Shown here one piece after another: positions 25,559 through 41,388 of a stretch of 64,000 bases of DNA. Both the position numbers and the translations under genes were made by a program. Numbering within the stretch: position 1 is the stretch's first letter; each line of letters starts with the position of its first letter. Origin of the DNA: an uncultured Bacteroidales bacterium (GTDB lineage: Bacteria; Bacteroidota; Bacteroidia; Bacteroidales; UBA932); NCBI GenBank assembly GCA_944323245.1, contig CALURT010000013.1, positions 274-64,273 of the forward strand. Reading direction: 5' to 3'. The notes beneath the pieces are model-generated. The model ran no database searches and was not told the DNA's origin. It was given only the letters and a program-made list of their open reading frames with translations.

Positions 25559-26230
25559 ATGAGATGTAAAAACTGCGGTTGGGAAAATGAATCCGGCAGT
25601 ACAAAATGCGAAAAATGCAATGCTCCCCTTTCCGACCCGGCAACGGCCCAATACGAAAACAGATCATTCGGTTCTTCTGAGAACGTAAACCTTAAAGGTA
25701 CAGTTTCGGAAGACAGTTTCTTCGGCAACAGACCAGCATCCGGGGGGGGCAATTTTCATGAATCCGGCAAATGCCGCAAATGCGGCTATCCTTTGGCACA
25801 TGGCATGACCGTATGCCCGATGTGCGGGACACCAACCGGGAACAACACCAATCACGACTTCAACAGGGGCTACGACTCCGGCCCTTCAAACCAAGCATCC
25901 CCATCAAGACAAGGGACTGTAAATCCGTGGGCTGCTCCCAATTCCGGAGCATCCTGCTCCTTGAAACCATTGGCGTGGGACAATGAGGGCGAACACGAAG
26001 CAATGCGTCTGTCCGGGGACAGGATTATCCTCAACAGGGCGAATACTGACCCTGCCAACAATACGATTACTTCTGGAGAACAGGCCGAACTGACTTTCGA
26101 AAACGGAGCCTGGTATATCTGCGACAAGAGCTATCAGAAGACGACATACGTCCATGCCGGCCACAAGATGAAACTCGAAAAGGGTGACATCATAATCCTC
26201 GGGAACAGACGGTTCGAATTCAATTCCTGA
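25559..26230 (+). CDS. Zinc-ribbon + FHA domain protein
   Basis: Four CxxC pairs (CKNC, CEKC, CRKC, CPMC); C-terminal FHA-like region ILNR...TYV...LEKGDIIILGNRRF. Confidence 0.75.
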   Translation: MRCKNCGWENESGSTKCEKCNAPLSDPATAQYENRSFGSSENVNLKGTVSEDSFFGNRPASGGGNFHESGKCRKCGYPLAHGMTVCPMCGTPTGNNTNHDFNRGYDSGPSNQASPSRQGTVNPWAAPNSGASCSLKPLAWDNEGEHEAMRLSGDRIILNRANTDPANNTITSGEQAELTFENGAWYICDKSYQKTTYVHAGHKMKLEKGDIIILGNRRFEFNS

Positions 26231-26236
26231 TTTGCC

Positions 26237-27520
26237 ATGCCGGAATATGACATAGCGGAAAGGTGTGAATTCCATTGCGGGGACACCCTTGACGGCAAAT
26301 ACAGGATAGAACGTCTGTTGGGAGAAGGTTCTTTCGGGACTGTCTACAAGGTAAGCGACGCCGGCGGCAATGAATATGCTGCCAAACTGCTGAAATTGTG
26401 GGCCGTAATGCCTGAAATATCCAAAAACCTCCGGGACAGGTTCACGATGGAGTTCGAGACCGGACGGATAAAAAGCGACAACCTTGTACATTCCCATTCC
26501 TACGGCGAAGTAAAAGGCAATCCGTACATTGTGATGGAGTATTGCCCGAACGGTGATTTGCGCCACTATGCCTCCTCGCACCACGTAGACTATGTCCGTG
26601 TCGGGAAACAGGTCCTGAGAGGCTTGGGCGACCTGCACGGCTGCGGCAAGGTACATAGAGACCTGAAGCCGGAAAATGTCCTGCTCCGCAGGGACAATAC
26701 CGCCGTTCTGACGGATTTCGGAATTTCCGGAGACAGGAACAAGCGCATGACCGAGCGAGGCTGGATAGGCAAGCCGCAGCAGATATTCGGGACATATCCC
26801 TACATGCCTCCGGAACAGGTAAACCCTCCGAGAGGTGGCCAGGCTACGGTATTGCCGACCACAGACATTTTCTCTTTCGGAGTCATGATGTATGAACTCC
26901 TTGTCGGGGATCTGCCTTTCGGCGAACTGAATGAAGATACCCTGCACACCTATCTTGCAAACGGCAAGACGGGTAAATGGGACAGGGATGCCCTGCGGAA
27001 AGCCGACAGGTCGGGAGTATGGCTTCCGGTCATTGAAGGCTGCCTTGTCCCGGACTTCAAGAAAAGGCTTCAGAGCACGGAAGAAATCATAAGGATGTTG
27101 CCATGCGATCCCGAAGCATACCGTCAGGAACCTGTGTACAGGTCTTTCATGAATGTCCGCACCGGCATTCTGTTAAGAGTGATGCAGGGAGAGGAATACG
27201 GCAAGGTCTACTGTCTTGACAGCCTGCTGCATGGGAACAGGATTCTGACAGTCGGACGTATGGACCGATCCGTAAGGAATTCCATTCCCGTACAGGAAAC
27301 CGGAAGCGCATACGTATCACGCATGCACTGCACACTTGAAAAGGACGGCACGACAGGGAAATGGTTCATCAGGGACGGGCAATGGGACGGGAACTGGTGG
27401 AAACCGTCCCTCAACGGGACTTACGTCAACTCGACCGAAGTCGGTGAATCCGGAATGCCGGTAAAGCCGGGGGACATCATCTCAATCGGCGACGTGAAAC
27501 TACGTGTAGAAGGATATTAA
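26237..27520 (+). CDS. Hanks-type Ser/Thr protein kinase with C-terminal FHA domain (soluble)
   Basis: LGEGSFGTVY, YAAK, HRDLKPEN, DFG, YMPPE; FHA motifs VGR, VSRMH, NGTYVN. Confidence 0.9.
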   Translation: MPEYDIAERCEFHCGDTLDGKYRIERLLGEGSFGTVYKVSDAGGNEYAAKLLKLWAVMPEISKNLRDRFTMEFETGRIKSDNLVHSHSYGEVKGNPYIVMEYCPNGDLRHYASSHHVDYVRVGKQVLRGLGDLHGCGKVHRDLKPENVLLRRDNTAVLTDFGISGDRNKRMTERGWIGKPQQIFGTYPYMPPEQVNPPRGGQATVLPTTDIFSFGVMMYELLVGDLPFGELNEDTLHTYLANGKTGKWDRDALRKADRSGVWLPVIEGCLVPDFKKRLQSTEEIIRMLPCDPEAYRQEPVYRSFMNVRTGILLRVMQGEEYGKVYCLDSLLHGNRILTVGRMDRSVRNSIPVQETGSAYVSRMHCTLEKDGTTGKWFIRDGQWDGNWWKPSLNGTYVNSTEVGESGMPVKPGDIISIGDVKLRVEGY

Positions 27521-27534
27521 TCAAAGTAATTTAT

Positions 27535-28425
27535 ATGGTCATTATGGTCAGAAGAATTGTCATTCAGATACTTTTCATGCTGCTCTGCACGGCGGTGCCT
27601 GTCCTTGCGCAGGACTGCTACAAATTTACCCGCACGCAGGCGATTTCATATTACGAAAAGGGAGAGTACCGTATTGCACGCGACCAATTCATTGCAGCAA
27701 AGGACTGTCCCGACAAACCTGAGGATAACGACCTCGACTCGTGGATAGCCAGATGCGACTCCGCAATCGCCGAAATTGGGCGAAAAGCCGAAGCGGAACG
27801 GCAACGCCGCATCGAGGAAGAACGGATAAAGGCAGAGGAGCGAAAGAGGGAGGAACAGGCCCGCATTGCCGAAGAGAAACGGCTTGCCGAGGAAAAGAAG
27901 CGTGAGGAAGAACGGAGACAGCAGGAAATCAGGGACAGTATAGCAAGGTACAGTTTGACTGAAACCCAAATGGTCCTGTACCCGTTCGGAGTGCTTACGG
28001 ACAAAACGGAAACCCTTACTATTGCGGATGTGCTGAGCGGATTGGAGTCTGTATTTGCCGGAAATGTCAGCAAATATCAAAGTTCTGTATTCCTTTACGG
28101 CATATCTCCTTATTTCTATAAAGGATTTTCCGACAAAATAATCGCCACATGTTATTTTTCCGAAGGAAAAGTTTCCCTATATTCATACGACCTCACATTC
28201 CTCAAGTCAGAATATTCCCAAAAGGAAGTGCTGGACATGGCAAATGAATTTGCCGCCGCTCTGACTGCAGCAGGAGCTGAAATGTCCGTGGTTGAACCGA
28301 TTGGAACAGAGTCTTTGCGAATTGAAGGAGAATTTGCCGGAAAAACAATATGGATTAATTCCTCAGAGTGTTCTTATGTCCAAAAATTCGACAGCTGGTA
28401 TTTTAGAGTGACTTGTCTCCAATGA
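27535..28425 (+). CDS. Secreted protein with TPR-like helices, E/R/K coiled coil and unknown C-terminal domain
   Basis: Signal peptide ending VLA-Q, YYEKGEY...AKDCPDKP...WIARC, long charged helix. Confidence 0.65.
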   Translation: MVIMVRRIVIQILFMLLCTAVPVLAQDCYKFTRTQAISYYEKGEYRIARDQFIAAKDCPDKPEDNDLDSWIARCDSAIAEIGRKAEAERQRRIEEERIKAEERKREEQARIAEEKRLAEEKKREEERRQQEIRDSIARYSLTETQMVLYPFGVLTDKTETLTIADVLSGLESVFAGNVSKYQSSVFLYGISPYFYKGFSDKIIATCYFSEGKVSLYSYDLTFLKSEYSQKEVLDMANEFAAALTAAGAEMSVVEPIGTESLRIEGEFAGKTIWINSSECSYVQKFDSWYFRVTCLQ

Positions 28426-28462
28426 TTCTCACCTGTAAATACATGAATATATAGACAAAGCG

Positions 28463-29397
28463 AACTATGGAACTGCAACCCGGAACATTGTTCAACGACC
28501 GCTACCGCCTTATCAGGGAAATCAGCCGGGGCTCGTTCGGCGAGGTCTGGCTCGCCCAGGACGAACGCCTCGACCTCGAAGTGGCGGTAAAAGTGTACAT
28601 CGCCCTCGACAGCAGAGGAATCGAGGAGTTCAAGACCGAGTACAAGGTCGCATATACTCTAAACCATCCGAACCTTCTCCATGCACATCATTTCGATGTC
28701 TGCGGGAACAGGCCTTTCCTCGTGATGCCGTTCTGTCCCTCCTCGGCAGTCGCACATATCGGACAGACAGACGAACAGACAGCATGGAGGTTCATCATGG
28801 ATGTCGCTGCTGGTCTCGATTTCCTTCACGGGCAGAACATCGTACACAGGGATATAAAGCCCGACAACATCCTGTGCGATGCCGAAGGACATTTCCTCAT
28901 CACGGACTTCGGAATCAGCGTAAAGATGAAAAGCACATTGCGCAGGAACTCAACCCGCAAGATGGATACTAATGCCGCAGGGACTATCGGATACATGGCC
29001 CCGGAACTCTTTTCAGCGAATCCCGACGCAGTGATGGCCACTGACATCTGGGCTTTGGGGGCTTCACTTTATGAAATGATTACGGGAGAACTTCCGTTCA
29101 TGGGACAGGGAGGCGTAATGCAGCTCCACGGGGCAGAAGTCCCGGAACTGAAAGGGGATTTCTCCCAGGCCCTGAAGGAGACGCTCGCTGCATGTCTTGC
29201 AAAGGACCCGTGGGACAGGCCGACTGCCGATCGGCTCCACGAATTCGCCAAGGCCGTCCTCGATGGAGGCTGCCCCTCCGCCCCGTGGATAGAATCCGCA
29301 GCGAAAAAACGAGAGTCGAAAAGTACCGTCAAAACCTCTCGCCGGACCGTGAAACAGAATGCTCCGCAGCCTGTCCCCGCCGACCCAAACGCCACCC
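28463..29397 (+). repeat. Kinase-module direct repeat, copy 1 (partner 33775-34709)
   Basis: Near-identical DNA at constant offset 5312, with scattered mostly synonymous differences. Confidence 0.92.
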
Positions 29398-30041
29398 GGC
29401 CAGTCGGGGAACAATCGCAAAAACTGCTTCGGCAGAATGATTCTGACAGAAAAATCTGGGTACTGCTGATTATCAGCATAGGAATACTTGTATTCAATCA
29501 GTTGATACGCCTGTTCTCATACGAATATCCGATACTGCCGCAATGGGAACACGTTTTCCGACATGGTTACGGAGAGACAATTCTGATTCTTCCGGCATTG
29601 GCTGCATTGGTATTACTCACTGCCAGAGCCGTGCTTTTCTGCATGATATTCAGAAAAAGCAAAACCCCGCTACAAAAAATATCCGCAGCAACAGTAGCGA
29701 TAAGTATCATCTACGACGTGATCATCACCATTTGGCTTAACGCGTCAAAAGAAACGTTGGGGAATGAAATTTTAGGATTGCGTTTCCCGGTGTGGCTTTG
29801 GGCAGTGTCATTCATTTTAATGAATATCCGCACTTTGGGTATATGCATTCTGATCTGGTGCACAGGCAAAAACATTGCAGCTAAGATAACGGCAGGAATA
29901 TACCTGCTCCTGCTACTGGCTGACTTGGTCAATCATGACATCAGCAATTTGTATTACGTCACGGTACATTCCATTGCATTAATTTCCATGGTTATAATAT
30001 ACAATATCTACATGAAATCAGCAATGCTTCCAAAACAATAG
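28467..30041 (+). CDS. Membrane Ser/Thr protein kinase A (kinase + multi-TM tail)
   Basis: SRGSFGEVW, VAVK, HRDIKPDN, DFG, GTIGYMAPE; about six hydrophobic segments after aa ~330. Confidence 0.9.
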   Translation: MELQPGTLFNDRYRLIREISRGSFGEVWLAQDERLDLEVAVKVYIALDSRGIEEFKTEYKVAYTLNHPNLLHAHHFDVCGNRPFLVMPFCPSSAVAHIGQTDEQTAWRFIMDVAAGLDFLHGQNIVHRDIKPDNILCDAEGHFLITDFGISVKMKSTLRRNSTRKMDTNAAGTIGYMAPELFSANPDAVMATDIWALGASLYEMITGELPFMGQGGVMQLHGAEVPELKGDFSQALKETLAACLAKDPWDRPTADRLHEFAKAVLDGGCPSAPWIESAAKKRESKSTVKTSRRTVKQNAPQPVPADPNATRPVGEQSQKLLRQNDSDRKIWVLLIISIGILVFNQLIRLFSYEYPILPQWEHVFRHGYGETILILPALAALVLLTARAVLFCMIFRKSKTPLQKISAATVAISIIYDVIITIWLNASKETLGNEILGLRFPVWLWAVSFILMNIRTLGICILIWCTGKNIAAKITAGIYLLLLLADLVNHDISNLYYVTVHSIALISMVIIYNIYMKSAMLPKQ

Positions 30042-30065
30042 ACAACAAAGAAAACAGATAACATC

Positions 30066-31643
30066 ATGCCACAATCTACACAAACCTACAGACGTTCCCT
30101 TGCCGGCTCGGTCGGAGCCGGAATGAAATCGGTCTTCGGAGGAAGCGGCCGGCGGTTCTATACCTTGGTACACAAAGTATCCAGCAAATACCACAAGGCC
30201 GGAGAAGCCCAGCAGATCATCGTCGACCAGATAGAGATCGGACGCGACCCTCTCTGCCAAGTCAGGTTCGACGAGTCATTCGTTACGGTCAGCCGCCGCC
30301 ATGCGGCCATAGTCAAGGACGGCGACAACTGGAAACTCATCCAACTCTCGCAGACCAACTCCACCTATCTCAACGGCCACAAGGTCCAGAAAGAATGGTA
30401 TCTTCAGAACGGAGACGAAATTCAGCTCTCCACAAACGGACCGAAACTCGGGTTCATCATACCCGAAGGCAAGAAAGGACTTGTCAGCAGTATCAACCTG
30501 ACTGCCCGTCTCAATCTGTTCCGCCAGCAGGCTCTGCGTCCGTATAAAAATGCCATTACGGCATTGGCGTGCCTTCTCGTCGCCGGTGCAGGAGTTGCCG
30601 GTGCGCTGATATACAGCCAGCACAAGGAAATCAGCGAACTGAACAGGATGTACGTACAGGCGCAGGATGTAATAGAATCCGTCAAAAGAGAAAACAATGA
30701 ACTCGGTAAGGCCTTCGAAGACATGGAGGAAAAAGCCCGTCAGCAGGACTCCATAATAGATGCCGGCCGAAAGGAAATCAACCGCATCAAATCGGCTTCC
30801 CCTCAGGCCAACGTGGCCCGGCTCATCGAGTCCGTGCGGTCAAGCGTCTATTTTATCGTGACCACGGTATATGTCAGGATAGGAAATGAAACGCAGGCAA
30901 TCGGAGCAAGCAGCGGAACAGGATTCCTGCTCAAGGACGGCAGATTCGTGACGGCCCGGCATTGCGTGGAGCCATGGCTGTTCGGAGGAGACATCGAGCT
31001 CAATGTAATGAACGAATCCTATGACAATGTCACCGTATGGTCGGAGATCAAGGCTTATGGAGTGAAGAACGATGACTTTACCCTACGCAGTTCGGACTTT
31101 ACCATTGACCGCAGCATGGATGTCATGTTGAACGCCGGTACGGATGACTACGGAAATCCGATGAAAATGAGATTGGCTTACTATTACGAATACACGGACC
31201 CGGAAACAGGGAAAGTCACGAAATACGGGGACATCAGAATGGGAGGCACGGACTGGGCAGTCGCAAGGACAGCCAAACGCGGGACAATCGAAGCTGACGC
31301 CAACCTTTCAGCATCCTTGACACAGGGAACTGAAGTCCATGTGCTCGGATTCCCTGCCGGTTTGGGTGCAGGAGACGGACAAAGCCGTATCGAACCGATA
31401 TATAACAAGATGAATGTGGCACGCAACGGGCTGAACAGGCAGGGCTGCATTATGGTAAGCCAGGGCGTGGCCCACGGAAATTCCGGCGGCCCGGTATTTT
31501 CCGTCAAAGACGGCAGGATTTATGCTGTCGCCATCGTCTCAAAACTCGAATCCGCCACGCAGCAATACAATGACAGCGGAACAGCCATAACACAACAGCA
31601 ACAGCAATATGACCAATTGGTCCCTATAAGGAACATACGATGA
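30066..31643 (+). CDS. FHA - TM - coiled coil - trypsin-like serine protease
   Basis: FHA motifs IGR, VSRRH, NSTYLNG; TM AITALACLLVAGAGVAGALIY; catalytic triad motifs TARHC, TDWAV, GNSGGP. Confidence 0.88.
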   Translation: MPQSTQTYRRSLAGSVGAGMKSVFGGSGRRFYTLVHKVSSKYHKAGEAQQIIVDQIEIGRDPLCQVRFDESFVTVSRRHAAIVKDGDNWKLIQLSQTNSTYLNGHKVQKEWYLQNGDEIQLSTNGPKLGFIIPEGKKGLVSSINLTARLNLFRQQALRPYKNAITALACLLVAGAGVAGALIYSQHKEISELNRMYVQAQDVIESVKRENNELGKAFEDMEEKARQQDSIIDAGRKEINRIKSASPQANVARLIESVRSSVYFIVTTVYVRIGNETQAIGASSGTGFLLKDGRFVTARHCVEPWLFGGDIELNVMNESYDNVTVWSEIKAYGVKNDDFTLRSSDFTIDRSMDVMLNAGTDDYGNPMKMRLAYYYEYTDPETGKVTKYGDIRMGGTDWAVARTAKRGTIEADANLSASLTQGTEVHVLGFPAGLGAGDGQSRIEPIYNKMNVARNGLNRQGCIMVSQGVAHGNSGGPVFSVKDGRIYAVAIVSKLESATQQYNDSGTAITQQQQQYDQLVPIRNIR

Positions 31644-32497
31644 AATCACTGACAGCAACATTGGCCCTGTCATTCATCACATTGACAGGATTTGCCCAAA
31701 TCTCGTTTCAGACAAACAACCAGCAGATTATCGAAGACGCCGTAGCCGGAGGTCTCCTGATCGTCCGTCAGGAATATCAGTTGGAGGATACGGTGTCCAT
31801 GAAGCGTTATACTTGGAACAACCGTCCCGAATTCGGCAGTACCCTTTCGTTCTGCGTGCTCGCGGAAAACGGATATGTCATCTCCAATTCCGTCCTCAAG
31901 CCATGGATGCATGACCCCAAATTCGACAAATACAAGGATTCCGCATATCGCCCGGTACTCACTGACACATGGTACAAGTCCGCTGCCTCAAGGGATTTCC
32001 GCAAGGCGGACTGCGTTGCAACGGACGACACCGTACATTTGTCCGACTCAAGTTTGGTTTATGTCAAGGACACTCTTTTCGGACAGGGCTTTGCAATTGA
32101 CACTATGCCCGGGACAAAGGACGGCTGGATAGTATGGCTGACTTCCAAAGATGAGGAGAGCATCGGATCCGACTCCCTTATGCTGATAACTTATCGCCAC
32201 AAACTGACCGTACTGGCAGACAGGGACATTTACGAAATCCCTGCCCCGACCTCATCAAGATACGTCATCGGAGGTGTCTATGTGGAACCGGGATACACCG
32301 GCATAGGCAAAATTGAATTCCGACTCGCTGGAATAATCGTGAAAAACGGAGAAAAGTGGCAGATGTGCAAAATATGCCGGACGAAAAAGGCAGGCAATGA
32401 AAGCACCCTGTCCGAAGATACCGGGACACTGACTCCGGCAGCATCGGAAACGCATGGAATGGAAGAAACAAAAGAACAAGGTCATGAAAAAGATTAA
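31640..32497 (+). CDS. Secreted hypothetical protein, possibly a catalytically inactive trypsin-fold protein
   Basis: Signal peptide; 4-nt overlap with the upstream stop; loose similarity to the neighbouring protease without catalytic His/Ser. Confidence 0.6.
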   Translation: MKSLTATLALSFITLTGFAQISFQTNNQQIIEDAVAGGLLIVRQEYQLEDTVSMKRYTWNNRPEFGSTLSFCVLAENGYVISNSVLKPWMHDPKFDKYKDSAYRPVLTDTWYKSAASRDFRKADCVATDDTVHLSDSSLVYVKDTLFGQGFAIDTMPGTKDGWIVWLTSKDEESIGSDSLMLITYRHKLTVLADRDIYEIPAPTSSRYVIGGVYVEPGYTGIGKIEFRLAGIIVKNGEKWQMCKICRTKKAGNESTLSEDTGTLTPAASETHGMEETKEQGHEKD

Positions 32498-33776
32498 GTT
32501 CAGGTTAGCTGCATATACCGATGCAGCGGGCAAAAGGAACGATGTCCCTCCCCTTTATGGCAACGAGGACAATTTTTACGTGGACGCAGACCTGTCGGAA
32601 GAGCCGCAGGGAGAATTTTCTTCCGACGAGGAAAAGGCCCTGTCCGATTACGGTTCGCTCTTGGTCATTGCAGACGGCATGGGCGGGATGAATGCCGGAG
32701 AAGTCGCATCCGAAATAGCCGTCCGTACCGTCAAGGAATGTTTCGCACATAAAAATCTGACTGACCGGATCGTCGCAGACGCTGAATCGAGGGAACGCTA
32801 TATGGAGCATGTCGTGGAGGAAGCGGATGCTGCAATCAAGGCCCGTTCGCAGGAAAACAAGGAATGCGAAGGGATGGGAAGCACCATAATCATGGTATGG
32901 ATATGCGACGGAGTTGCTTCCGTCACATGGTGCGGCGACAGCAGGGCATACCTGTTCCGTGAACCGAAAGGCATAGCGCAAATCTCGAAAGACCATTCTT
33001 ATGTGCAGTCCCTTGTAGACGACGGCAAAATTACCGAAGAAGAGGCGTTTGACCACCCTTATGGGAACATCATTACACGGAGCCTCGGAGATCCGGAGAA
33101 AAAGGCAAAGGCTGACAGCGTGACTGTGCCTTTGTACAAGGGGGACATAATTCTGGTCTGCAGTGACGGCTTGAGCGGAGTTCTGCGGGACCATCCTTTG
33201 TCCGACGGCACACCTGCGGCAAATCTCGAAGAAATCATACGCTCCAACCGCTCTTCGATGCAGTCCTGCCGAGAAGCCCTGTTCTCTGCTGCCGAACAGG
33301 CCGACTGGTATGACAACGTGACCGCAATCCTGTATGAGATTACGGACGGGGCTGCGGCTCCGGAACCTGAATGTGACAAGGCAGGAACTGAAACCGCCGT
33401 CAGCAAGAGTTTCATCAATATCAGAATCAGCAAAAAAAGGCTTCTGTACTGGATCATTGCACTGATTGCGGTTGCAGCCGTCGCCTGCGGCGGATTTTTC
33501 GGGATAAAGTTCCTGAAAGAAACGGACCAGCCGGCACCTGTGGAGGAGCAACTGCAGCAACCGGTTCCTGAAAATCCCGGCACGCAAGTACCTGCTCCAG
33601 GAGAATCTCAGGACGAACCTTCGGCTTCTGCCTCCGTTGATGTCTCCGCTCCCCTGACTGACGAAAAAATCTCAGGCAATAGTCTGACACCGGTGACTGA
33701 CTCAATCAATAGTCTGACACCGGCAACTGATTCAATCAATGGACTTACACCTGCCCCTGAACCTCAAAGACAATAA
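32484..33776 (+). CDS. PP2C-family Ser/Thr phosphatase with C-terminal TM and low-complexity tail
   Basis: IADGMGG, CGDSRAY, CSDGL, DNVT; TM LLYWIIALIAVAAVACGGFFGI; start re-called at ATG 32484. Confidence 0.9.
   Translation: MKKIKFRLAAYTDAAGKRNDVPPLYGNEDNFYVDADLSEEPQGEFSSDEEKALSDYGSLLVIADGMGGMNAGEVASEIAVRTVKECFAHKNLTDRIVADAESRERYMEHVVEEADAAIKARSQENKECEGMGSTIIMVWICDGVASVTWCGDSRAYLFREPKGIAQISKDHSYVQSLVDDGKITEEEAFDHPYGNIITRSLGDPEKKAKADSVTVPLYKGDIILVCSDGLSGVLRDHPLSDGTPAANLEEIIRSNRSSMQSCREALFSAAEQADWYDNVTAILYEITDGAAAPEPECDKAGTETAVSKSFINIRISKKRLLYWIIALIAVAAVACGGFFGIKFLKETDQPAPVEEQLQQPVPENPGTQVPAPGESQDEPSASASVDVSAPLTDEKISGNSLTPVTDSINSLTPATDSINGLTPAPEPQRQ
33678..33757 (+). repeat. 30-bp coding tandem repeat (~2.7 copies) in PP2C tail
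   Basis: AATAGTCTGACACCGG(TG/CA)ACTGA(C/T)TCAATC twice plus a degenerate third copy; encodes NSLTPVTDSI NSLTPATDSI NGLTP. Confidence 0.85.
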
Positions 33777-34709
33777 CTATGGAACTGCAACCCGGAACAT
33801 TGTTCAACGACCGCTACCGCCTGATCATGGAAATCAGCCGGGGCTCGTTCGGCGAGGTCTGGCTCGCCCAGGACGAACGCCTCGACCTCGAAGTGGCGGT
33901 AAAAGTGTACATCGCCCTCGACAGCAGAGGAATCGAGGAGTTCAAGACCGAGTACAAGGTCGCATATACTCTCAACCATCCGAATCTTCTCCATGCACAT
34001 CATTTCGATGTCTGCGGGAACAGGCCTTTCCTCGTGATGCCGTTCTGCCCTTCCTCGGCGGTCGCACATATCGGACAGACAGACGAACAGACAGCATGGA
34101 GGTTCATCAGGGATGTCGCTGCTGGTCTCGATTTCCTTCACGGGCAGAACATCGTACACCGGGATATAAAACCCGACAACATCCTGTGTGATGCCGAAGG
34201 ACATTTCCTCATCACGGACTTCGGAATCAGCGTGAAGATGAAAAGCACATTGCGCAGGAACTCAACCCGAAAGCTCGAATCAAACGCCGCAGGGACTATC
34301 GGATACATGGCCCCGGAACTCTTTTCCTCGAATCCGGACGCAGTGATGGCCACTGACATCTGGGCTTTGGGGGCTTCCCTGTATGAAATGATTACAGGGG
34401 AACTTCCGTTCATGGGACAAGGAGGCGTAATGCAGCTCCACGGGGCAGAAGTCCCTGAACTGAAAGGGGATTTTTCCCAGTCCCTGAAGGAGACCCTCGC
34501 TGCATGCCTTGCGAAAGACCCATGGGACAGGCCGACCGCCGACAGACTCAATGAATTCGCCAAGGCCGTCCTCGATGGAGGCTGCCCCTCCGCCCCGTGG
34601 ATAGAATCCGCAGCGAAAAAAAGAGAGTCGAAAAGTACCGTCAAAACCTCCCGCCGGACCGTGAAACAGGATTCTCCGAAGCCTGTCCCCACCGCCACGA
34701 ACGCCACAG
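33775..34709 (+). repeat. Kinase-module direct repeat, copy 2 (partner 28463-29397)
   Basis: Near-identical to 28463-29397. Confidence 0.92.
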
Positions 34710-35938
34710 TCCCGTATTCCGGCGACATGAATGACGGCCCGGTCATAAGGGAACGCAACTGGTTCGTAAACGTGTGTATATGGCTCTCTATCGTGGCGAG
34801 TGTATTGTACACTGCAATCTATTGCATTTTGACTATCAACAACTATGAATATACAGGAGCGTCCCGTGCAGCAGCGGTGTGCAGCACATTGTCCGCGATT
34901 GCCGGATGGATGGTCTGGAAATACAATCGTCTCGGACTTTGGCTGTATCTTGTCGCCCAATGTGTAATTTATGTTGTCATGCCACTTAAGATCACCGGCA
35001 TGACTATTCTCTGGCCCGGCACTATAATCGGAGCGGTCTTCGTCATCGGGATTTTTCTGATACGCAGGAACGGGATTTCCACATGGAAACTCATGGATTA
35101 CAGGATAAGAGGCATAAGCACGTATATTGTAGCAGCTATAGGAGCGGTTGCCATGATTGTGTCGATGGTAATTCCGAACGGAGCGGTCATAGGCGCCCGC
35201 AAAAGTATTGAAAAATACCTGCTCAATGTCGGCGAATGCAAAGAGATAATAGCTCAGGAACAGCCTTCTGCAGAGTCACTGATAGACGCAAAGAGAATCC
35301 TTGAGAGAATCGAGAGCGATGATGTCCGTTATAGAGACATCGACAGTCGTTACTCGGAAAGTCCGGCACTCAAAAATGCCCTGAAAGACAAGACAGAAGC
35401 TGTCGCAGAACAGTGGGCGACAGCCGCCAAGTCACAGACACGAATCGGAAACACTGACAAGGCGGCCGAATTCCTGTCAACCGCCTTGCTGTTGGACGAA
35501 AAATACAGGCCGGATTTCGAAAAGGCGGCTGAAAAGGTGGGGTACATGAAGCCGCTGTCTATAGAATTGAAGACAGACGGCGGGGAATGGGGAGAAATTC
35601 TCTACGCCGACAAAATCAGATACCTATACCCGAGGCTTACGTACAAATCATTGGATTCCAAAGAAAATCATGACGTCAAGCTGATTGTGAAAATATACAA
35701 CAACGGACAACTGAAATACAATGCTTCAGAATACTCATCCTCCTATAGTTACAGTGAAGACATTACGGTAGATTCAGCGGGAGGAAGATGTGAACTGACA
35801 GGCTGGGGCAGCGATAAGGGTGGCGTATATTCGGCCGGCCCACTCCTCGTGGAAGTGTGGTGCAATGGCAACAAACTGATAAGCAAGTCAGCCACAATAT
35901 ACAACAGCGACCTTCGTCCCAACTACATTGGTGATTAA
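33779..35938 (+). CDS. Membrane Ser/Thr protein kinase B (kinase + multi-TM + extracytoplasmic domain)
   Basis: Same kinase motifs as kinase A; about five TM segments, then a helical region and a beta-rich C-terminal domain (LTGWGS...VEVWCNG). Confidence 0.9.
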   Translation: MELQPGTLFNDRYRLIMEISRGSFGEVWLAQDERLDLEVAVKVYIALDSRGIEEFKTEYKVAYTLNHPNLLHAHHFDVCGNRPFLVMPFCPSSAVAHIGQTDEQTAWRFIRDVAAGLDFLHGQNIVHRDIKPDNILCDAEGHFLITDFGISVKMKSTLRRNSTRKLESNAAGTIGYMAPELFSSNPDAVMATDIWALGASLYEMITGELPFMGQGGVMQLHGAEVPELKGDFSQSLKETLAACLAKDPWDRPTADRLNEFAKAVLDGGCPSAPWIESAAKKRESKSTVKTSRRTVKQDSPKPVPTATNATVPYSGDMNDGPVIRERNWFVNVCIWLSIVASVLYTAIYCILTINNYEYTGASRAAAVCSTLSAIAGWMVWKYNRLGLWLYLVAQCVIYVVMPLKITGMTILWPGTIIGAVFVIGIFLIRRNGISTWKLMDYRIRGISTYIVAAIGAVAMIVSMVIPNGAVIGARKSIEKYLLNVGECKEIIAQEQPSAESLIDAKRILERIESDDVRYRDIDSRYSESPALKNALKDKTEAVAEQWATAAKSQTRIGNTDKAAEFLSTALLLDEKYRPDFEKAAEKVGYMKPLSIELKTDGGEWGEILYADKIRYLYPRLTYKSLDSKENHDVKLIVKIYNNGQLKYNASEYSSSYSYSEDITVDSAGGRCELTGWGSDKGGVYSAGPLLVEVWCNGNKLISKSATIYNSDLRPNYIGD

Positions 35939-35942
35939 GAGT

Positions 35943-37076
35943 TCAACGAACGTGTACCAATTCATACCGGCGGGTACCGAGGCCGATTTTCTCGGCATGG
36001 GCAAGGCATGACTTGTACTCGGTATTCGGGTTCGTATTGTCGAAATGGTCATGATGGTCATGGAAACCGGGACGTTGCATTTCATCCGTCAGCTGGCTTC
36101 CCGGAAGAGGTGTCTGTTTCAGGCATGCGTCCACGCAGGCCTGGTCCAAAGCCAAAGGATCGGATGAGGCGAACATTCCCACGTCAGGGATGATAGGAGT
36201 GTCGTTGCCGGAATGGCAGTCGCATGTCGGGGATACATCGCAAATCAGCGAAATATGGAAATTCGGTCTCCCCTGCACCACGGCCTTGGCATATTCCGCC
36301 ATCCTGCAGTTCAGTTCCCTGATGGCTGCATCCTGGGCGAAGTCTATTGCATCGAAGTTGCAGGCTCCTATGCAGCGTCCGCATCCGACGCAATTCTCCT
36401 CGTTTATTGTCATTTTCCTGCGCTCCGCGTCGAATACGAGTCCGTCGTTGGCGCATTCCTTCAGGCAGGCCTTGCATCCGCGGCATTTGCTTTCGTCTAT
36501 CACGGCCTTGCCGTTGCAATGCTGTTCCTTCTTTCCGGCCCTCGAACCGCAGCCCATGCCTATGTTCTTGATTGTGCCGCCGAATCCCGTCATTTCGTGC
36601 CCCTTGAAATGCGTCAGGGAGATGAAGATATCGGCATCCATGACGGCTCGGCCTATTTTGGCAGACTTGACATATTCCCCGTTCTCCACAGGAACTTCTA
36701 TGTCATCCGTACCTTTCAATCCGTCACCGATAATGACAGGGCAGCCTGCCGACAAAGGCGTGAATCCGTTTTCCCATGCGCAATACAGGTGTTCAAGGGC
36801 GTTTTTCCTGCTTCCCGGATACAGGGTATTGCAATCGGTCAGAAACGGTTTCCCTCCGCATTCCCTGACCATGTCCGCCACTGCCTTGGCATAGTTCGGC
36901 CTCAGATAGGTCATGTTTCCGAGTTCTCCGAAATGCATCTTTATCGCCACGAACTTCCCTTCCATGTCTATCTTGTCGATTCCCGCTGTTTTGATAAGTC
37001 GCTTCAATTTGTCAACCGGACCCTCGTCGGGCCTGCACCTGAAATCGGTGTAAAAAACTTTCGATACTTCGTTCAT
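35943..37076 (-). CDS. DUF362 family protein with 2x[4Fe-4S] ferredoxin domain
   Basis: VAIKMHFGE, HFKGHE, KNIGMGC, CRGCKAC and CVGCGRCIGAC clusters. Confidence 0.85.
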   Translation of the reverse strand: MNEVSKVFYTDFRCRPDEGPVDKLKRLIKTAGIDKIDMEGKFVAIKMHFGELGNMTYLRPNYAKAVADMVRECGGKPFLTDCNTLYPGSRKNALEHLYCAWENGFTPLSAGCPVIIGDGLKGTDDIEVPVENGEYVKSAKIGRAVMDADIFISLTHFKGHEMTGFGGTIKNIGMGCGSRAGKKEQHCNGKAVIDESKCRGCKACLKECANDGLVFDAERRKMTINEENCVGCGRCIGACNFDAIDFAQDAAIRELNCRMAEYAKAVVQGRPNFHISLICDVSPTCDCHSGNDTPIIPDVGMFASSDPLALDQACVDACLKQTPLPGSQLTDEMQRPGFHDHHDHFDNTNPNTEYKSCLAHAEKIGLGTRRYELVHVR

Positions 37077-37123
37077 TGTAATGTAAGAAATGTTGGAAAT
37101 CCAAAGATAATGGATTTTTCAAT

Positions 37124-38035
37124 TCATTGTACGGCTATTGTCTCATAAACAATGCGTGAAATTCCGGCAATCGCCGCTTCGCAGGCCTCTGCCGGTTCAT
37201 CGGCATTCTTCACGAACACCGCTATACAGTAATGCCTTCCGTCGGACAATTCCACTATTCCGACATCGTTGACTGCTGTCAGGCGTCCGGTTTCATCCGT
37301 ATCCCCCGTGCCTGTCTTGTGTGCGAGGACTGCATCCGAGCCTTCAAGACCTTTCTGCAGGCGGGCATTTCCGGTCGTGCATGAGAGCATTATTTCCATC
37401 AGCTCTCCTTGCATTTCCGGGCCGAGAATTTCTCCAGAATAGAGTTTTTCCAAAAGGTGTACGGCAGCAGCAGGCGAAGCCGTGTTGAAATATGAATTTC
37501 CGATATTTTCGTGCATCTGTGCCTCGGTCATGGATATGCTGAACCCGTCTATTCCGTATGAACGTATGCACGAATCCGTCTGTGCAGGAGTTACGAAGCG
37601 GCTGAAAAGGATGTCGCAGGCATTGTTGTCGCTCAATCCCAAGGAATACTCCAACAATTCCCTGACGGTCAGGTCAATATTACCTTCAGGAAAAGTATCC
37701 CGCAACGGGCTATAGGTGTTTTCCTGCAGGTCCTGCCGTGTAATATGCACAGTCTCGTCAAGAGACCTTCCGCTCCTTTCAAGGAAACCGCAGACCGCTA
37801 TCGCCTGAGGCAGTTTGACAACGCTCGCCAACGGATACTCCCCCGGCTCTCCCGCTACCGCCGATTCCCCGTCATACAACACTGCCACGCCGACCTCCGC
37901 ATCCACCTGAACTGCAATGGAATCTATCCGGCTTTCCAATTCCCCTGCATCAAATACGTTCCTGCTCCCGCAGGATACGGAAAGGATTCCCGCCACGCCC
38001 CACACTACCGCCGCAATCAAACATTTCAGCTTCAT
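37124..38035 (-). CDS. Class A (subclass A2-like) serine beta-lactamase, predicted lipoprotein
   Basis: SxxK (ASVVK), SDN, omega-loop EAQMH, HKTG; lipobox-like LSVS-C at aa 22. Confidence 0.85.
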   Translation of the reverse strand: MKLKCLIAAVVWGVAGILSVSCGSRNVFDAGELESRIDSIAVQVDAEVGVAVLYDGESAVAGEPGEYPLASVVKLPQAIAVCGFLERSGRSLDETVHITRQDLQENTYSPLRDTFPEGNIDLTVRELLEYSLGLSDNNACDILFSRFVTPAQTDSCIRSYGIDGFSISMTEAQMHENIGNSYFNTASPAAAVHLLEKLYSGEILGPEMQGELMEIMLSCTTGNARLQKGLEGSDAVLAHKTGTGDTDETGRLTAVNDVGIVELSDGRHYCIAVFVKNADEPAEACEAAIAGISRIVYETIAVQ

Positions 38036-38090: not shown

Positions 38091-38131
38091 CAAATTGTTG
38101 TATAATTATACAATTTTTGTATATTCGCAGA

Positions 38132-38464
38132 ATGAAACGGATAATTGCATATAAATGTTATTTCAGCGACTTCATAAATAAATTGTCGTATGATGAAATC
38201 CGGAAGATACAACGTGCCTTGGACTTGTTCAAAGTCGAGGAATTGATGCCACGGCATTTCATCAAGTATATCCGTGACGGGATTTATGAGTTCAGAGTGA
38301 CATGCAGACGCAATGAGTTCCGCATATTTTTCATTTATGACGGCGATACTATTGTAGTATTGTTCAACGCTTTCAAAAAGAAAACGCAGAAGATTCCAGA
38401 CACAGAAATCAGAAAGGCGATAAAATTAAAGGAGGAGTATTATGAAACTAAAGGAAATAAGTAA
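38132..38464 (+). CDS. Type II TA toxin, RelE/ParE superfamily (Gp49/DUF891-like)
   Basis: DGIYEFRV, FRIFF, VVLFNAFKKKTQK; precedes an HTH gene. Confidence 0.8.
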   Translation: MKRIIAYKCYFSDFINKLSYDEIRKIQRALDLFKVEELMPRHFIKYIRDGIYEFRVTCRRNEFRIFFIYDGDTIVVLFNAFKKKTQKIPDTEIRKAIKLKEEYYETKGNK

Positions 38465-38747
38465 GGACATTTACGATGTCGATGCCTGGCTCGACGAAGG
38501 CCTCGGCAAAGAAGGAACTCCGGAACGGGAGAAAAACAGGGAAAAGGCATGGGAGGAATACAATGCACAGATTCTCCTTGATGCAAGGAAGAACGCCCAT
38601 CTGACACAGGCGGAGCTTGCGGCTCGCATCGGTGCGGATAAATCATACATCTCACGAGTTGAACGCGGACTGACTGTCCCTTCCGTAGCCACACTTTATA
38701 AAATAGCTGCAGCAATGGGACTGACCGTGGAACTCCGCCCGATGTAA
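38442..38747 (+). CDS. XRE-family HTH antitoxin
   Basis: LTQAELAARIGADKSYISRVERG; overlaps the toxin 3' end. Confidence 0.85.
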   Translation: MKLKEISKDIYDVDAWLDEGLGKEGTPEREKNREKAWEEYNAQILLDARKNAHLTQAELAARIGADKSYISRVERGLTVPSVATLYKIAAAMGLTVELRPM

Positions 38748-40037: not shown

Positions 40038-40119
40038 CTTTCATCTTTAACTTTAGAATGCGCCAAAAAAGTGCATAAATAATCATTTTTTGATTACCTT
40101 TGCACTAAAATTGCTCAAC

Positions 40120-40923
40120 ATGACAATCAGAGAATGGATCCGACATAGAGAAATAAGTGGCTTCCCCACTTTTTCGGTTGAAGAAATAAAGCAGGAATTT
40201 CATAATTATTCGGAACAGGTCATCAGAAATGAACTTTTTCGATTATCGTCTCATGGGATTTTATATCCTGCGTACAGGGGGTTTTATGTTATCATCCCGC
40301 CACAATACGCAGCTAAAAGAATTGTACCTCCGCAATATTACATTGACCAGCTGATGTCATATCTGAAAAAGCCATACTATATAAGTCTGTTGAATGCTGC
40401 GGAAATTTTAGGTGCTGCACATCAGCGTCCTCAAAGATTTTCAGTAACGACAATATTCCCGAAGTCGTCCGTTTCGTCATCAAAGAACAATACACTTGTC
40501 TGGACATACCGTAAAGAGATTCCATCGGACTTTTTACTATCAAAAAACTCTGAGACCGGAGTAATCCATTACTCAAATGTAGAATTGACAACCATTGACA
40601 TTGTACAGTATGAACAATATATCGGAGGTCTTTCCAGAGCCGCTACTATTCTGGAAGAATTGGCTGAGAAAATGGATTTTCGAAATGCGTCCAGGAATTT
40701 GTTCCGGCATACTTCAATCTCCACTATACAACGTTTAGGATATATACTGGAAGAGGTTCTTGGACAGAAAGAAATTGCTGAAGTGTTGCATACAGAATTG
40801 ATGTTATATGCCAACCGTTTCAGATACGTCCCGTTAAAGACCAATCGGTCAGATAATAATGCAGAAAAGAATACTCGCTGGAAAGTTAATATAAATTCGA
40901 TAATAGAAGTAGACGAAATATGA
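40120..40923 (+). CDS. Type IV TA antitoxin, AbiEi family
   Basis: N-terminal wHTH, YRGFYVIIPP, YYISLLNAA...GAAHQ, IQRLGYILE; -7 box TACCTTTG at 40095-40102 supports start at 40120. Confidence 0.82.
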   Translation: MTIREWIRHREISGFPTFSVEEIKQEFHNYSEQVIRNELFRLSSHGILYPAYRGFYVIIPPQYAAKRIVPPQYYIDQLMSYLKKPYYISLLNAAEILGAAHQRPQRFSVTTIFPKSSVSSSKNNTLVWTYRKEIPSDFLLSKNSETGVIHYSNVELTTIDIVQYEQYIGGLSRAATILEELAEKMDFRNASRNLFRHTSISTIQRLGYILEEVLGQKEIAEVLHTELMLYANRFRYVPLKTNRSDNNAEKNTRWKVNINSIIEVDEI

Positions 40924-41388
40924 TAAACAGAGATACCTCCTACCATTCCGCTTCGATTGAAAATTGAGATAAATTGTTTTGAACATTTCAATGAACTCGG
41001 ATTGGTCAAAATGCCGTTTGAGATGGAAAACAGTTGGTTCTCGGGTAAATGCGAAATAACGACATATTGCCTGAATGAACTTTTGGGGACAAAACTCAGT
41101 GCTCTGTATCAACGAAAAAAAGGAAGAGACCTTTTTGATTTATATGTAGCTCTGTCGGAAGCCTCCGTAAATATTGATGAAATACTCCGTTGTTACAGAC
41201 GTTATATGTCCTTTGTCGTACAACAGCCGCCAACATACAAACAATTCATCAATAATGTGGAGGAGAAAATGTCAGATCCGGAATTCCTTGGTGACACTCA
41301 AAATCTGATTCGCCCTGACAGAGAATTTGATCCACAGTCTGGTTATAAACTTGTTTTAGAAAAATTAATAGAACGAATGCACAAATAA
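40920..41388 (+). pseudogene. AbiEii nucleotidyltransferase toxin, internally deleted and frameshifted
   Basis: Coupled ATG 40920 reads MINRD then stops after 15 codons; the C-terminal half (EIPPTIPLRLKIEINC...ALYQRKKGRDLFDLY) is in another frame; no GGT/SEDID region. Confidence 0.78.

Follow-up and report, generated by a model that had tools for sequence, protein, structure and literature searches.

We analysed a 64,000-nucleotide stretch of DNA (the window, to whose positions all coordinates refer) from an uncultured Bacteroidales bacterium with a 2.3-Mb genome assembly. The window carries a signalling operon of this gut Bacteroidales that encodes two receptor-type Hanks kinases, KinA and KinB, in which closely similar kinase domains are joined to unrelated membrane tails, and we consider it very probable that these kinase domains evolve in concert by gene conversion within a conserved operon. 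The paralogues within one genome are closer than orthologues of different species, synonymous sites included; the duplicates predate the split from a sister species, in which both tails and the flanking genes are syntenic (loci L098-L101); and mosaic tracts and a recombination signal are found between the copies, with the caveat that the contigs are metagenomic. It thus appears to be the core, and not the sensor, that moves between the genes, which would reverse the direction of the interpretation given in an earlier reading made from the sequence only.

A repeat finder returned one direct-repeat family of 933 nt, with copies at 28463 and 33775 and a spacing of 5312. Copy B is 94.6% identical to copy A at the nucleotide level (51 differences in 930 nt). 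Compared codon by codon, codons 1–297 hold eight amino-acid differences (codons 17, 111, 166, 167, 168, 184, 235 and 258) and about 31 synonymous codon differences, with about 34 synonymous sites changed, giving a synonymous divergence (dS) of 0.19, a nonsynonymous divergence (dN) of 0.012 and a ratio of the two (omega) of 0.064 by the Nei-Gojobori method. The sole cluster of amino-acid differences is MDT/LES in the activation loop (codons 166–168), variants of which are found in either gene among other strains. The longest identical run between the cores is 144 nt (p=0.007), and differences become fewer toward the 5' end. The repeat begins 4 nt ahead of both ATG codons, the DNA further upstream being unrelated between the copies, while at the other end identity fades across codons 298–310 and stops past ADPNAT in KinA and TATNAT in KinB; N308, A309 and T310 are invariant in seven of seven aligned relatives. 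GC content is 0.55 in the cores against 0.42 in the A tail and 0.48 in the B tail, and at third codon positions (GC3) 0.66 against 0.49 and 0.54–0.57, respectively. These measurements bear out what the sequence-only reading had noticed at this locus, namely an alignment of both kinases at an offset of 5312, eight amino-acid differences over the first 297 residues with many synonymous changes, a sharp end past PNAT/TNAT and AT-richer tails, and its view that the second copy is not an assembly duplicate also holds.

Repeats that are 95% identical are prone to errors in metagenome assembly, and some of the contigs end near the operon (L043, L046 and L104), so that a collapsed or duplicated repeat, or chimeric contigs, might in principle create both the second copy and the mosaics described below. 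We regard this as very improbable. There are 51 differing sites between the two copies, whose flanking sequences are also distinct on either side. Each of the two proteins, KinA and KinB, is recorded in exactly the same form on 11 contigs, and the loci that were fetched represent four separate metagenome assemblies (two ONAT22-1 samples, BRZ_R and BRZ_AI); across the 10,380-nt operon (10.4 kb) two independent assemblies are 100% identical to the window and a third differs at two single-nucleotide polymorphisms (SNPs), with each copy keeping its own variants. The complete sister operon was assembled in four samples, two of which were compared at the DNA level and are identical in both cores. 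The KinB haplotype of another strain (L104) was seen twice, and the junction of a hybrid KinA gene (strain L103, see below) has a microhomology of 1–3 nt, which is too short for a k-mer path switch. Because the same two copies, each with its own variants, occur in at least four independent assemblies, the second kinase copy is real.

The operon of the sister species has the same gene order as that of the window, with an A-type kinase after the gene for a coiled-coil protein that we call lipoX and a B-type kinase after the PP2C phosphatase gene, and its chromosomal flanks match as well (P-type ATPases and Fur upstream, a DUF362 Fe-S protein downstream). Between the two species, flanking orthologues show dS of 0.66–1.6 and the tails dS of about 1.05 with omega of 0.25–0.35, the A tails being 55% and the B tails 64% identical. 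All four between-species core comparisons give dS of 1.15–1.27 at 82–84% amino-acid identity, yet the two sister cores, A' and B', are 90% identical (dS 0.505) and closer to each other than to their window orthologues. In a tree of the cores, those of the window's KinA and KinB (OWN_A and OWN_B) pair with support of 100/99 and the sister cores group together, and the approximately unbiased (AU) test rejects both an A-tail clade (p=5e-6) and a B-tail clade (p=0.002), the log-likelihood falling by about 102. In the sister species homogenisation reaches to about codon 270, the linker there having 47 differences per 90 nt, whereas in the window it extends to about codon 310. Because the tail types are shared at syntenic positions and core dS within a genome is far below that between species, the core appears to have been exchanged and the tails to be old. 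On these comparisons, the tails are positional orthologues predating the split from the sister species, and the kinase domains were homogenised after it, independently in each lineage.

That the cores are alike through extreme purifying selection only, with no exchange of sequence, seems to us scarcely credible. Core omega is indeed low (0.06–0.1), but this explanation is contradicted by the synonymous sites, which are alike too (dS of 0.19 within the genome versus about 1.2 between species), by the rejection of orthology-by-tail in the AU test, and by the mosaic tracts and four-gamete failures found among strains.

Other strains of the window species contribute alleles of KinA (L102 and L103) and of KinB (L104/L105 and L106). 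Their flanks are 96–98% identical to the window at the DNA level; dS is 0.02–0.14 in flanking genes (mostly <0.09) and 0.04–0.09 in the tails, and reaches 0.14–0.30 in the cores. The mosaic analysis used six core alleles (three A and three B) over 891 nt. These differ from one another at 37–71 of the 891 positions with no partition into A and B: A genes are separated from B genes at 3 of 59 informative sites, all of them synonymous (29066, 29069 and 29087), and no amino-acid difference is fixed between A cores and B cores. The four-gamete test was failed by 833 of 1711 site pairs, and a PHI-like statistic fell below all 2000 permutations (p<0.0005), so that the tests for gene conversion proposed in the sequence-only reading, together with the 144-nt identical run, came out in favour of exchange.

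Individual tracts can be followed in both directions. KinA of L102 has about 20 diagnostic sites in a row in the 'B' state (28736–29024), and KinB of L104 and L105, which is identical in two assemblies, carries 'A' states across 28661–28968. In the near-identical strains L041 and L043 both in-repeat SNPs switch to the state of the paralogue, in opposite directions (Table 1). A linker tract at 29255–29295, in which OWN_A equals OWN_B, appears to have been converted in the window's own lineage. KinA of L103 is B-type through the linker and the first transmembrane (TM) segment, TM1, matching KinB of L106 over 1052 nt at 96.5% up to codon 349, and returns to A-tail sequence in frame from codon 363, over only 1–3 nt of microhomology, which shows that exchange can overrun its usual boundary. 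A check for a shared breakpoint, also suggested earlier, returned three different ends for the homogenised region: about codon 270 in the sister species, about 310 in the window and 349 in L103.

The sequence-only reading had interpreted the locus as a constant signalling core with a polymorphic, exchangeable input, the pattern of a diversifying receptor or conflict system. Put as an explanation of the present data, a kinase cassette would have been duplicated recently and fused to, or swapped between, unrelated sensor tails. The sharp junction and AT-richer tails are what this would produce, and across genera both the number of kinases and the tail type differ, with discordant core and tail similarities in other metagenome-assembled genomes (MAGs). 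The sister species, however, has both tails at matching positions of its operon, which means that they predate the similarity of the cores. Within the window species, the L103 hybrid, whose A tail begins with B linker and TM1 through an in-frame join at 1–3 nt of microhomology, could be taken as such a swap, but all recovered strain haplotypes carry the same tail type at each position, with A tails 95% identical (73% for the L103 hybrid) and B tails 93–96%. The A tail also has a within-species omega of about 0.8–0.9, based on very few changes, yet tail omega stays below 1 everywhere, at 0.28–0.9 within the species (on few changes) as well as in the between-species comparison given above; for the L103 A tail it was computed on the A-type part alone, as including the B-type TM1 inflates it (omega 0.75, dN 0.17). 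There are no inverted repeats of at least 40 nt in 26000–38000, and PADLOC offers no defence family beyond generic kinase-domain and weak trypsin-domain models. We therefore think tail swapping unlikely. What survives of the earlier interpretation is a constant kinase module on two unrelated tails; the tails themselves appear neither swapped nor hypervariable, a polymorphic input fails at the species level in that no sampled strain has a tail of any other than these two types, and dN/dS by region (tails 0.25–0.35 between species and <1 within, cores 0.06–0.1) gives no positive selection.

Two related candidates were rejected. A diversifying conflict system fails on tail variability, omega and family matches: in PADLOC the three kinases of the operon match only generic kinase-domain models, the FHA-trypsin protein has only weak trypsin-domain matches (RT-Protease_XI, LmuA and PDC-M35A) and the other four operon proteins have none, and the conflict-system paper of Kaur et al. 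2020 (PMC7159879) describes no system made up of these genes, with FHA and PP2C appearing there in other contexts only. Programmed DNA rearrangement, by a shufflon or invertible segment, was set aside on the lack of inverted-repeat pairs of at least 40 nt in 26000–38000, no search having been aimed at recombinase genes.

Under domain-limited gene conversion, our preferred explanation, KinA and KinB would be two old receptor-type Hanks kinases of one conserved Bacteroidales operon. Homologous recombination between the direct-repeat copies, 5.3 kb apart, would copy tracts non-reciprocally from gene to gene, presumably by RecA-type gene conversion, and would thereby explain the homogenisation of the core; copying would halt where homology ends, at the start codon on one side and at the linker and its PNAT motif on the other. 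Homogenisation may be tolerated or even favoured, both kinases having to dock the same FHA proteins and PP2C phosphatase, such that two different membrane inputs would drive one common phospho-output. Both receptors would share their phosphorylation partners and would present the same Thr-rich linker to the FHA proteins of the operon, the PP2C phosphatase would reset the signal, and the FHA-TM-trypsin protein may carry it to the periplasm.

Several points weigh against this explanation. All strain data are short-read metagenome contigs, in which path switching between 95%-identical paralogues or strains could account for some of the mosaic; L102, L103 and L106 were each seen once, and sampling is thin, with one sister species and about five strain haplotypes. 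Ectopic recombination with imported DNA of a different strain would be indistinguishable in its pattern from intragenomic conversion, and the homogenisation could be selected or a mere neutral by-product of proximity and homology. The between-species pattern and the haplotypes present in more than one assembly (OWN, L098-L101 and L104/L105) are independent of fine-scale phasing.

A stronger version, to which we give only modest credence, is that selection maintains the homogenisation. Conversion would then keep the common output domain and the Thr-rich FHA-docking linker matched to their FHA and PP2C partners while the sensors diverge freely, and the repeats would also act as a domain-shuffling device yielding occasional hybrid receptors, such as that of L103 in which the TM1 of B is grafted in frame onto the A tail. 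If true, the modular evolution of receptor kinases would have a counterpart in bacteria.

Both kinase domains match Pkinase PF00069 far above its gathering cut-off of 31.7 (150.1 bits for KinA, 151.1 bits for KinB), and the catalytic motifs SRGSFGEV, VAVKVY, HRDIKPDN, DFG and YMAPE are intact in both translations. Two receptors with different membrane parts appear to share a functionally interchangeable, catalytically intact kinase domain. They are Hanks-type kinases and not PknB/PASTA members: classification as PknB/Stk1 PASTA kinases (NCBIfam NF033483) was rejected on scores of 177 and 172 bits, below the cut-off of 450, the alignment to that model being restricted to the kinase part, and Pfam finds no PASTA domain in either protein.

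The earlier description of the tails, with about six TMs only in kinase A and about five plus a large outer domain in kinase B, agrees well with ours. A Kyte-Doolittle scan of the KinA tail gives six hydrophobic segments, for which the AlphaFold2 (AF2) model is a 6-helix bundle of low confidence (predicted local distance difference test, pLDDT, 68). The KinB tail has four strong TM segments and one weak, followed by a 255-aa domain, and by the positive-inside rule a topology of 5 TM with an external C-terminus is favoured. The beta-sandwich of this domain recurs in signal-peptide lipoX-like proteins of relatives and, because of these two lines of evidence, a location outside the cell is favoured. 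A fold search of the KinB outer domain against the PDB gave only generic beta-sandwich or helical matches (TM-score ~0.3), so no ligand can be inferred from them. Searched against a collection of 5.8 billion proteins, the A tail found only three other protein clusters, all kinase-fused, and the same was true of the B tail.

KinA and KinB belong to an eight-gene operon on the + strand (25559–35938; Table 1). For the first gene, Pfam confirms no FHA domain. The soluble kinase encoded by the second is only 30% identical to the KinA/KinB core and lies outside the repeat. The PP2C phosphatase scores 193 bits against the NCBIfam Stp1 model, below its cut-off of 230.

Table 1. Features of the kinase repeat and its operon, in window positions.
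Feature	Position	Strand	Evidence or remark
Repeat copy A: 4-nt leader, KinA kinase domain and juxtamembrane linker (codons 1-310)	28463..29397	+	Pkinase PF00069 E=1e-43
Repeat copy B: 4-nt leader, KinB kinase domain and linker (codons 1-310)	33775..34709	+	Pkinase E=5e-44
KinA, 524 aa: Hanks-type Ser/Thr kinase with 6-TM tail, no large soluble domain	28467..30041	+	ORF (open reading frame), Pfam, Kyte-Doolittle
KinB, 719 aa: same kinase core, 4-5 TM segments, 255-aa C-terminal domain	33779..35938	+	ORF, Pfam, Kyte-Doolittle
A-type tail	29398..30041	+	Sister-species orthologue 55% identical
B-type TM region: 4 strong TM segments and 1 weak (residues 361-379)	34710..35170	+	Kyte-Doolittle
B-type outer domain: five-helix bundle, then Ig/Fn3-like beta-sandwich	35171..35938	+	AF2 pLDDT 88.5
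Linker tract in which OWN_A equals OWN_B	29255..29295	+	KinA of L102 and L103 share a different haplotype, ~16 sites
Two diagnostic sites in KinA copy (codons 65 and 69)	28661..28673	+	KinB state in strain L043
Paralogous two sites in KinB copy	33973..33985	+	KinA state in strain L041
Operon gene 1: double zinc-ribbon protein	25559..26230	+	Pfam zinc ribbons only, residues 3-92
Operon gene 2: soluble Ser/Thr kinase with C-terminal FHA domain	26237..27520	+	Pfam
Operon gene 3 (lipoX): signal peptide and charged coiled coil, fast-evolving	27535..28425	+	No family match
Operon gene 5: FHA, TM, trypsin-like protease	30066..31643	+	
Operon gene 6: 285-aa protein of unknown function	31640..32497	+	Conserved in all related operons
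Operon gene 7: Stp1-like PP2C phosphatase, one TM and C-terminal tail	32454..33776	+	Gene callers start at 32484

The set of zinc-ribbon protein, kinase-FHA, FHA-trypsin, 285-aa protein and PP2C recurs in Bacteroidales MAGs of several families, where the operons hold one to five membrane kinases plus lipoX-like proteins. At least three tail families occur across genera: A-type (OWN_A and L012/L098), B-type (OWN_B, L013, L017_6357 and L019_15182) and C-type, which is common in other genera. Close relatives were found solely via exact-protein look-ups of the clusters retrieved with the tails; a scan of metagenome contigs with the kinase core returned nothing closer than 60% identity. In another Bacteroidales MAG (L014:13278-17341) two adjacent kinases have cores 96% identical and same-type tails only 71% identical, and in other kinase pairs of that MAG the tails are more alike than the cores, so core/tail discordance is not unique to the window species.

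The charged coiled coil of lipoX (27700–27900 and 28100–28200) is the most strain-divergent stretch, with 55–81% identity and indels between flanks of about 99%, and lipoX omega is 0.63 in L102 and 1.8 in L103, the latter on very few sites; of all parts of the operon it is the best candidate for an exposed component that truly evolves fast. Two further operon genes of the sister species have no counterpart in the window. One encodes 177 aa and lies between KinA and FHA-trypsin (L098:11650-12183), and the other (L098:18270-19616), of 448 aa with a weak DUF8428 match, lies past KinB and is syntenic with a lipoX-like gene past KinB in L013, whose product combines a lipoX-type N-terminus with the KinB beta-sandwich.

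Two strains differ in the FHA-TM-trypsin gene. In L102 (L102:3364-4868, window 30500–30599) it lacks about 73 nt through a deletion and is predicted as two ORFs, one for FHA (156 aa) and one for trypsin (331 aa); it may be a pseudogene or be split into separate FHA and protease proteins. An arm of the L104 contig (L104:1-1895) joins homology with the window at 30899 and encodes a trypsin-like domain 99% identical to residues 279–525 of the window protein, preceded by a signal peptide and an unrelated segment of about 115 aa that replace the FHA-TM-coiled coil, with an in-frame join at 'IGASSGTGF'. Upstream in the same arm lies a beta-rich repeat protein whose C-terminal end resembles, by eye, a T9SS sorting domain. 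A search for this arm in the window's genome, for a paralogous trypsin gene, gave no match; it is either a structural variant uncoupling the protease from FHA input or a chimeric contig. Downstream of the operon (38117–38747 and ~40090–41300) are a Gp49/HTH toxin-antitoxin-like pair, a HIRAN protein and an AbiEi/AbiEii pair, annotations read by synteny from the 99.98%-identical strain contig L045.

Concerted evolution of prokaryotic protein-coding paralogues is considered rare and has been described mostly for whole genes of the translation and energy machinery. KinA and KinB are a new example of a known process, here confined to a single domain in each of two signalling receptors, recurring in two sister species and visible as a mosaic at the population level. 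In practice, orthology will be assigned wrongly if it is read from kinase-domain trees of such operons, and caution is needed with short-read assemblies of these loci. The pattern also suggests that an identical catalytic output of both receptors enters one shared FHA/PP2C/protease network, a wiring hypothesis that can be tested for this uncharacterised operon.

Among bacterial paralogues, the tuf genes (with conversion kinetics in PMC5485169) and the rRNA operons are established cases of gene conversion, and a prokaryote-wide survey (Wang and Chen 2018, PMC6053082), in which the word 'kinase' is absent, found lasting concerted evolution in only 26 genes. In tufA/tufB of Salmonella, the rRNA operons and those 26 genes, as in KinA and KinB, paralogues within a genome are closer than orthologues, at synonymous sites too, and the process recurs in separate lineages and leaves mosaic tracts. 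The products in such cases share one complex or pathway, and KinA and KinB fit the 'gene balance/co-evolution' idea of that survey. Unlike all of them, however, KinA and KinB have one domain homogenised while the rest of both genes is non-homologous, and the copies, separated by 5.3 kb within a single operon, encode Hanks kinases and show a lineage-dependent tract extent.

Modules of PknB/Stk1 kinases with Stp1 (PstP) and FhaA/FhaB are known from Actinobacteria and Firmicutes. Like the present operon, they encode membrane Hanks kinases, PP2C and FHA partners together (reviewed in PMC6213207). The Thr-rich juxtamembrane linker of KinA and KinB would correspond to the usual FHA docking region of those systems. 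The present operon differs in having no PASTA domains and no RodA/PBP genes, in its 6-TM tail and its 5-TM tail with helical bundle and beta-sandwich, and in adding an FHA-TM-trypsin protease and a third, soluble kinase-FHA. Gene conversion also underlies cassette variation of surface proteins at pilE/pilS, vlsE and opa, where the exposed part is diversified from silent donors. Segmental, non-reciprocal copying with sharp boundaries is common to these systems and to KinA and KinB, but here it is the conserved cytoplasmic catalytic part that is homogenised, between two expressed genes, while the exposed parts stay.

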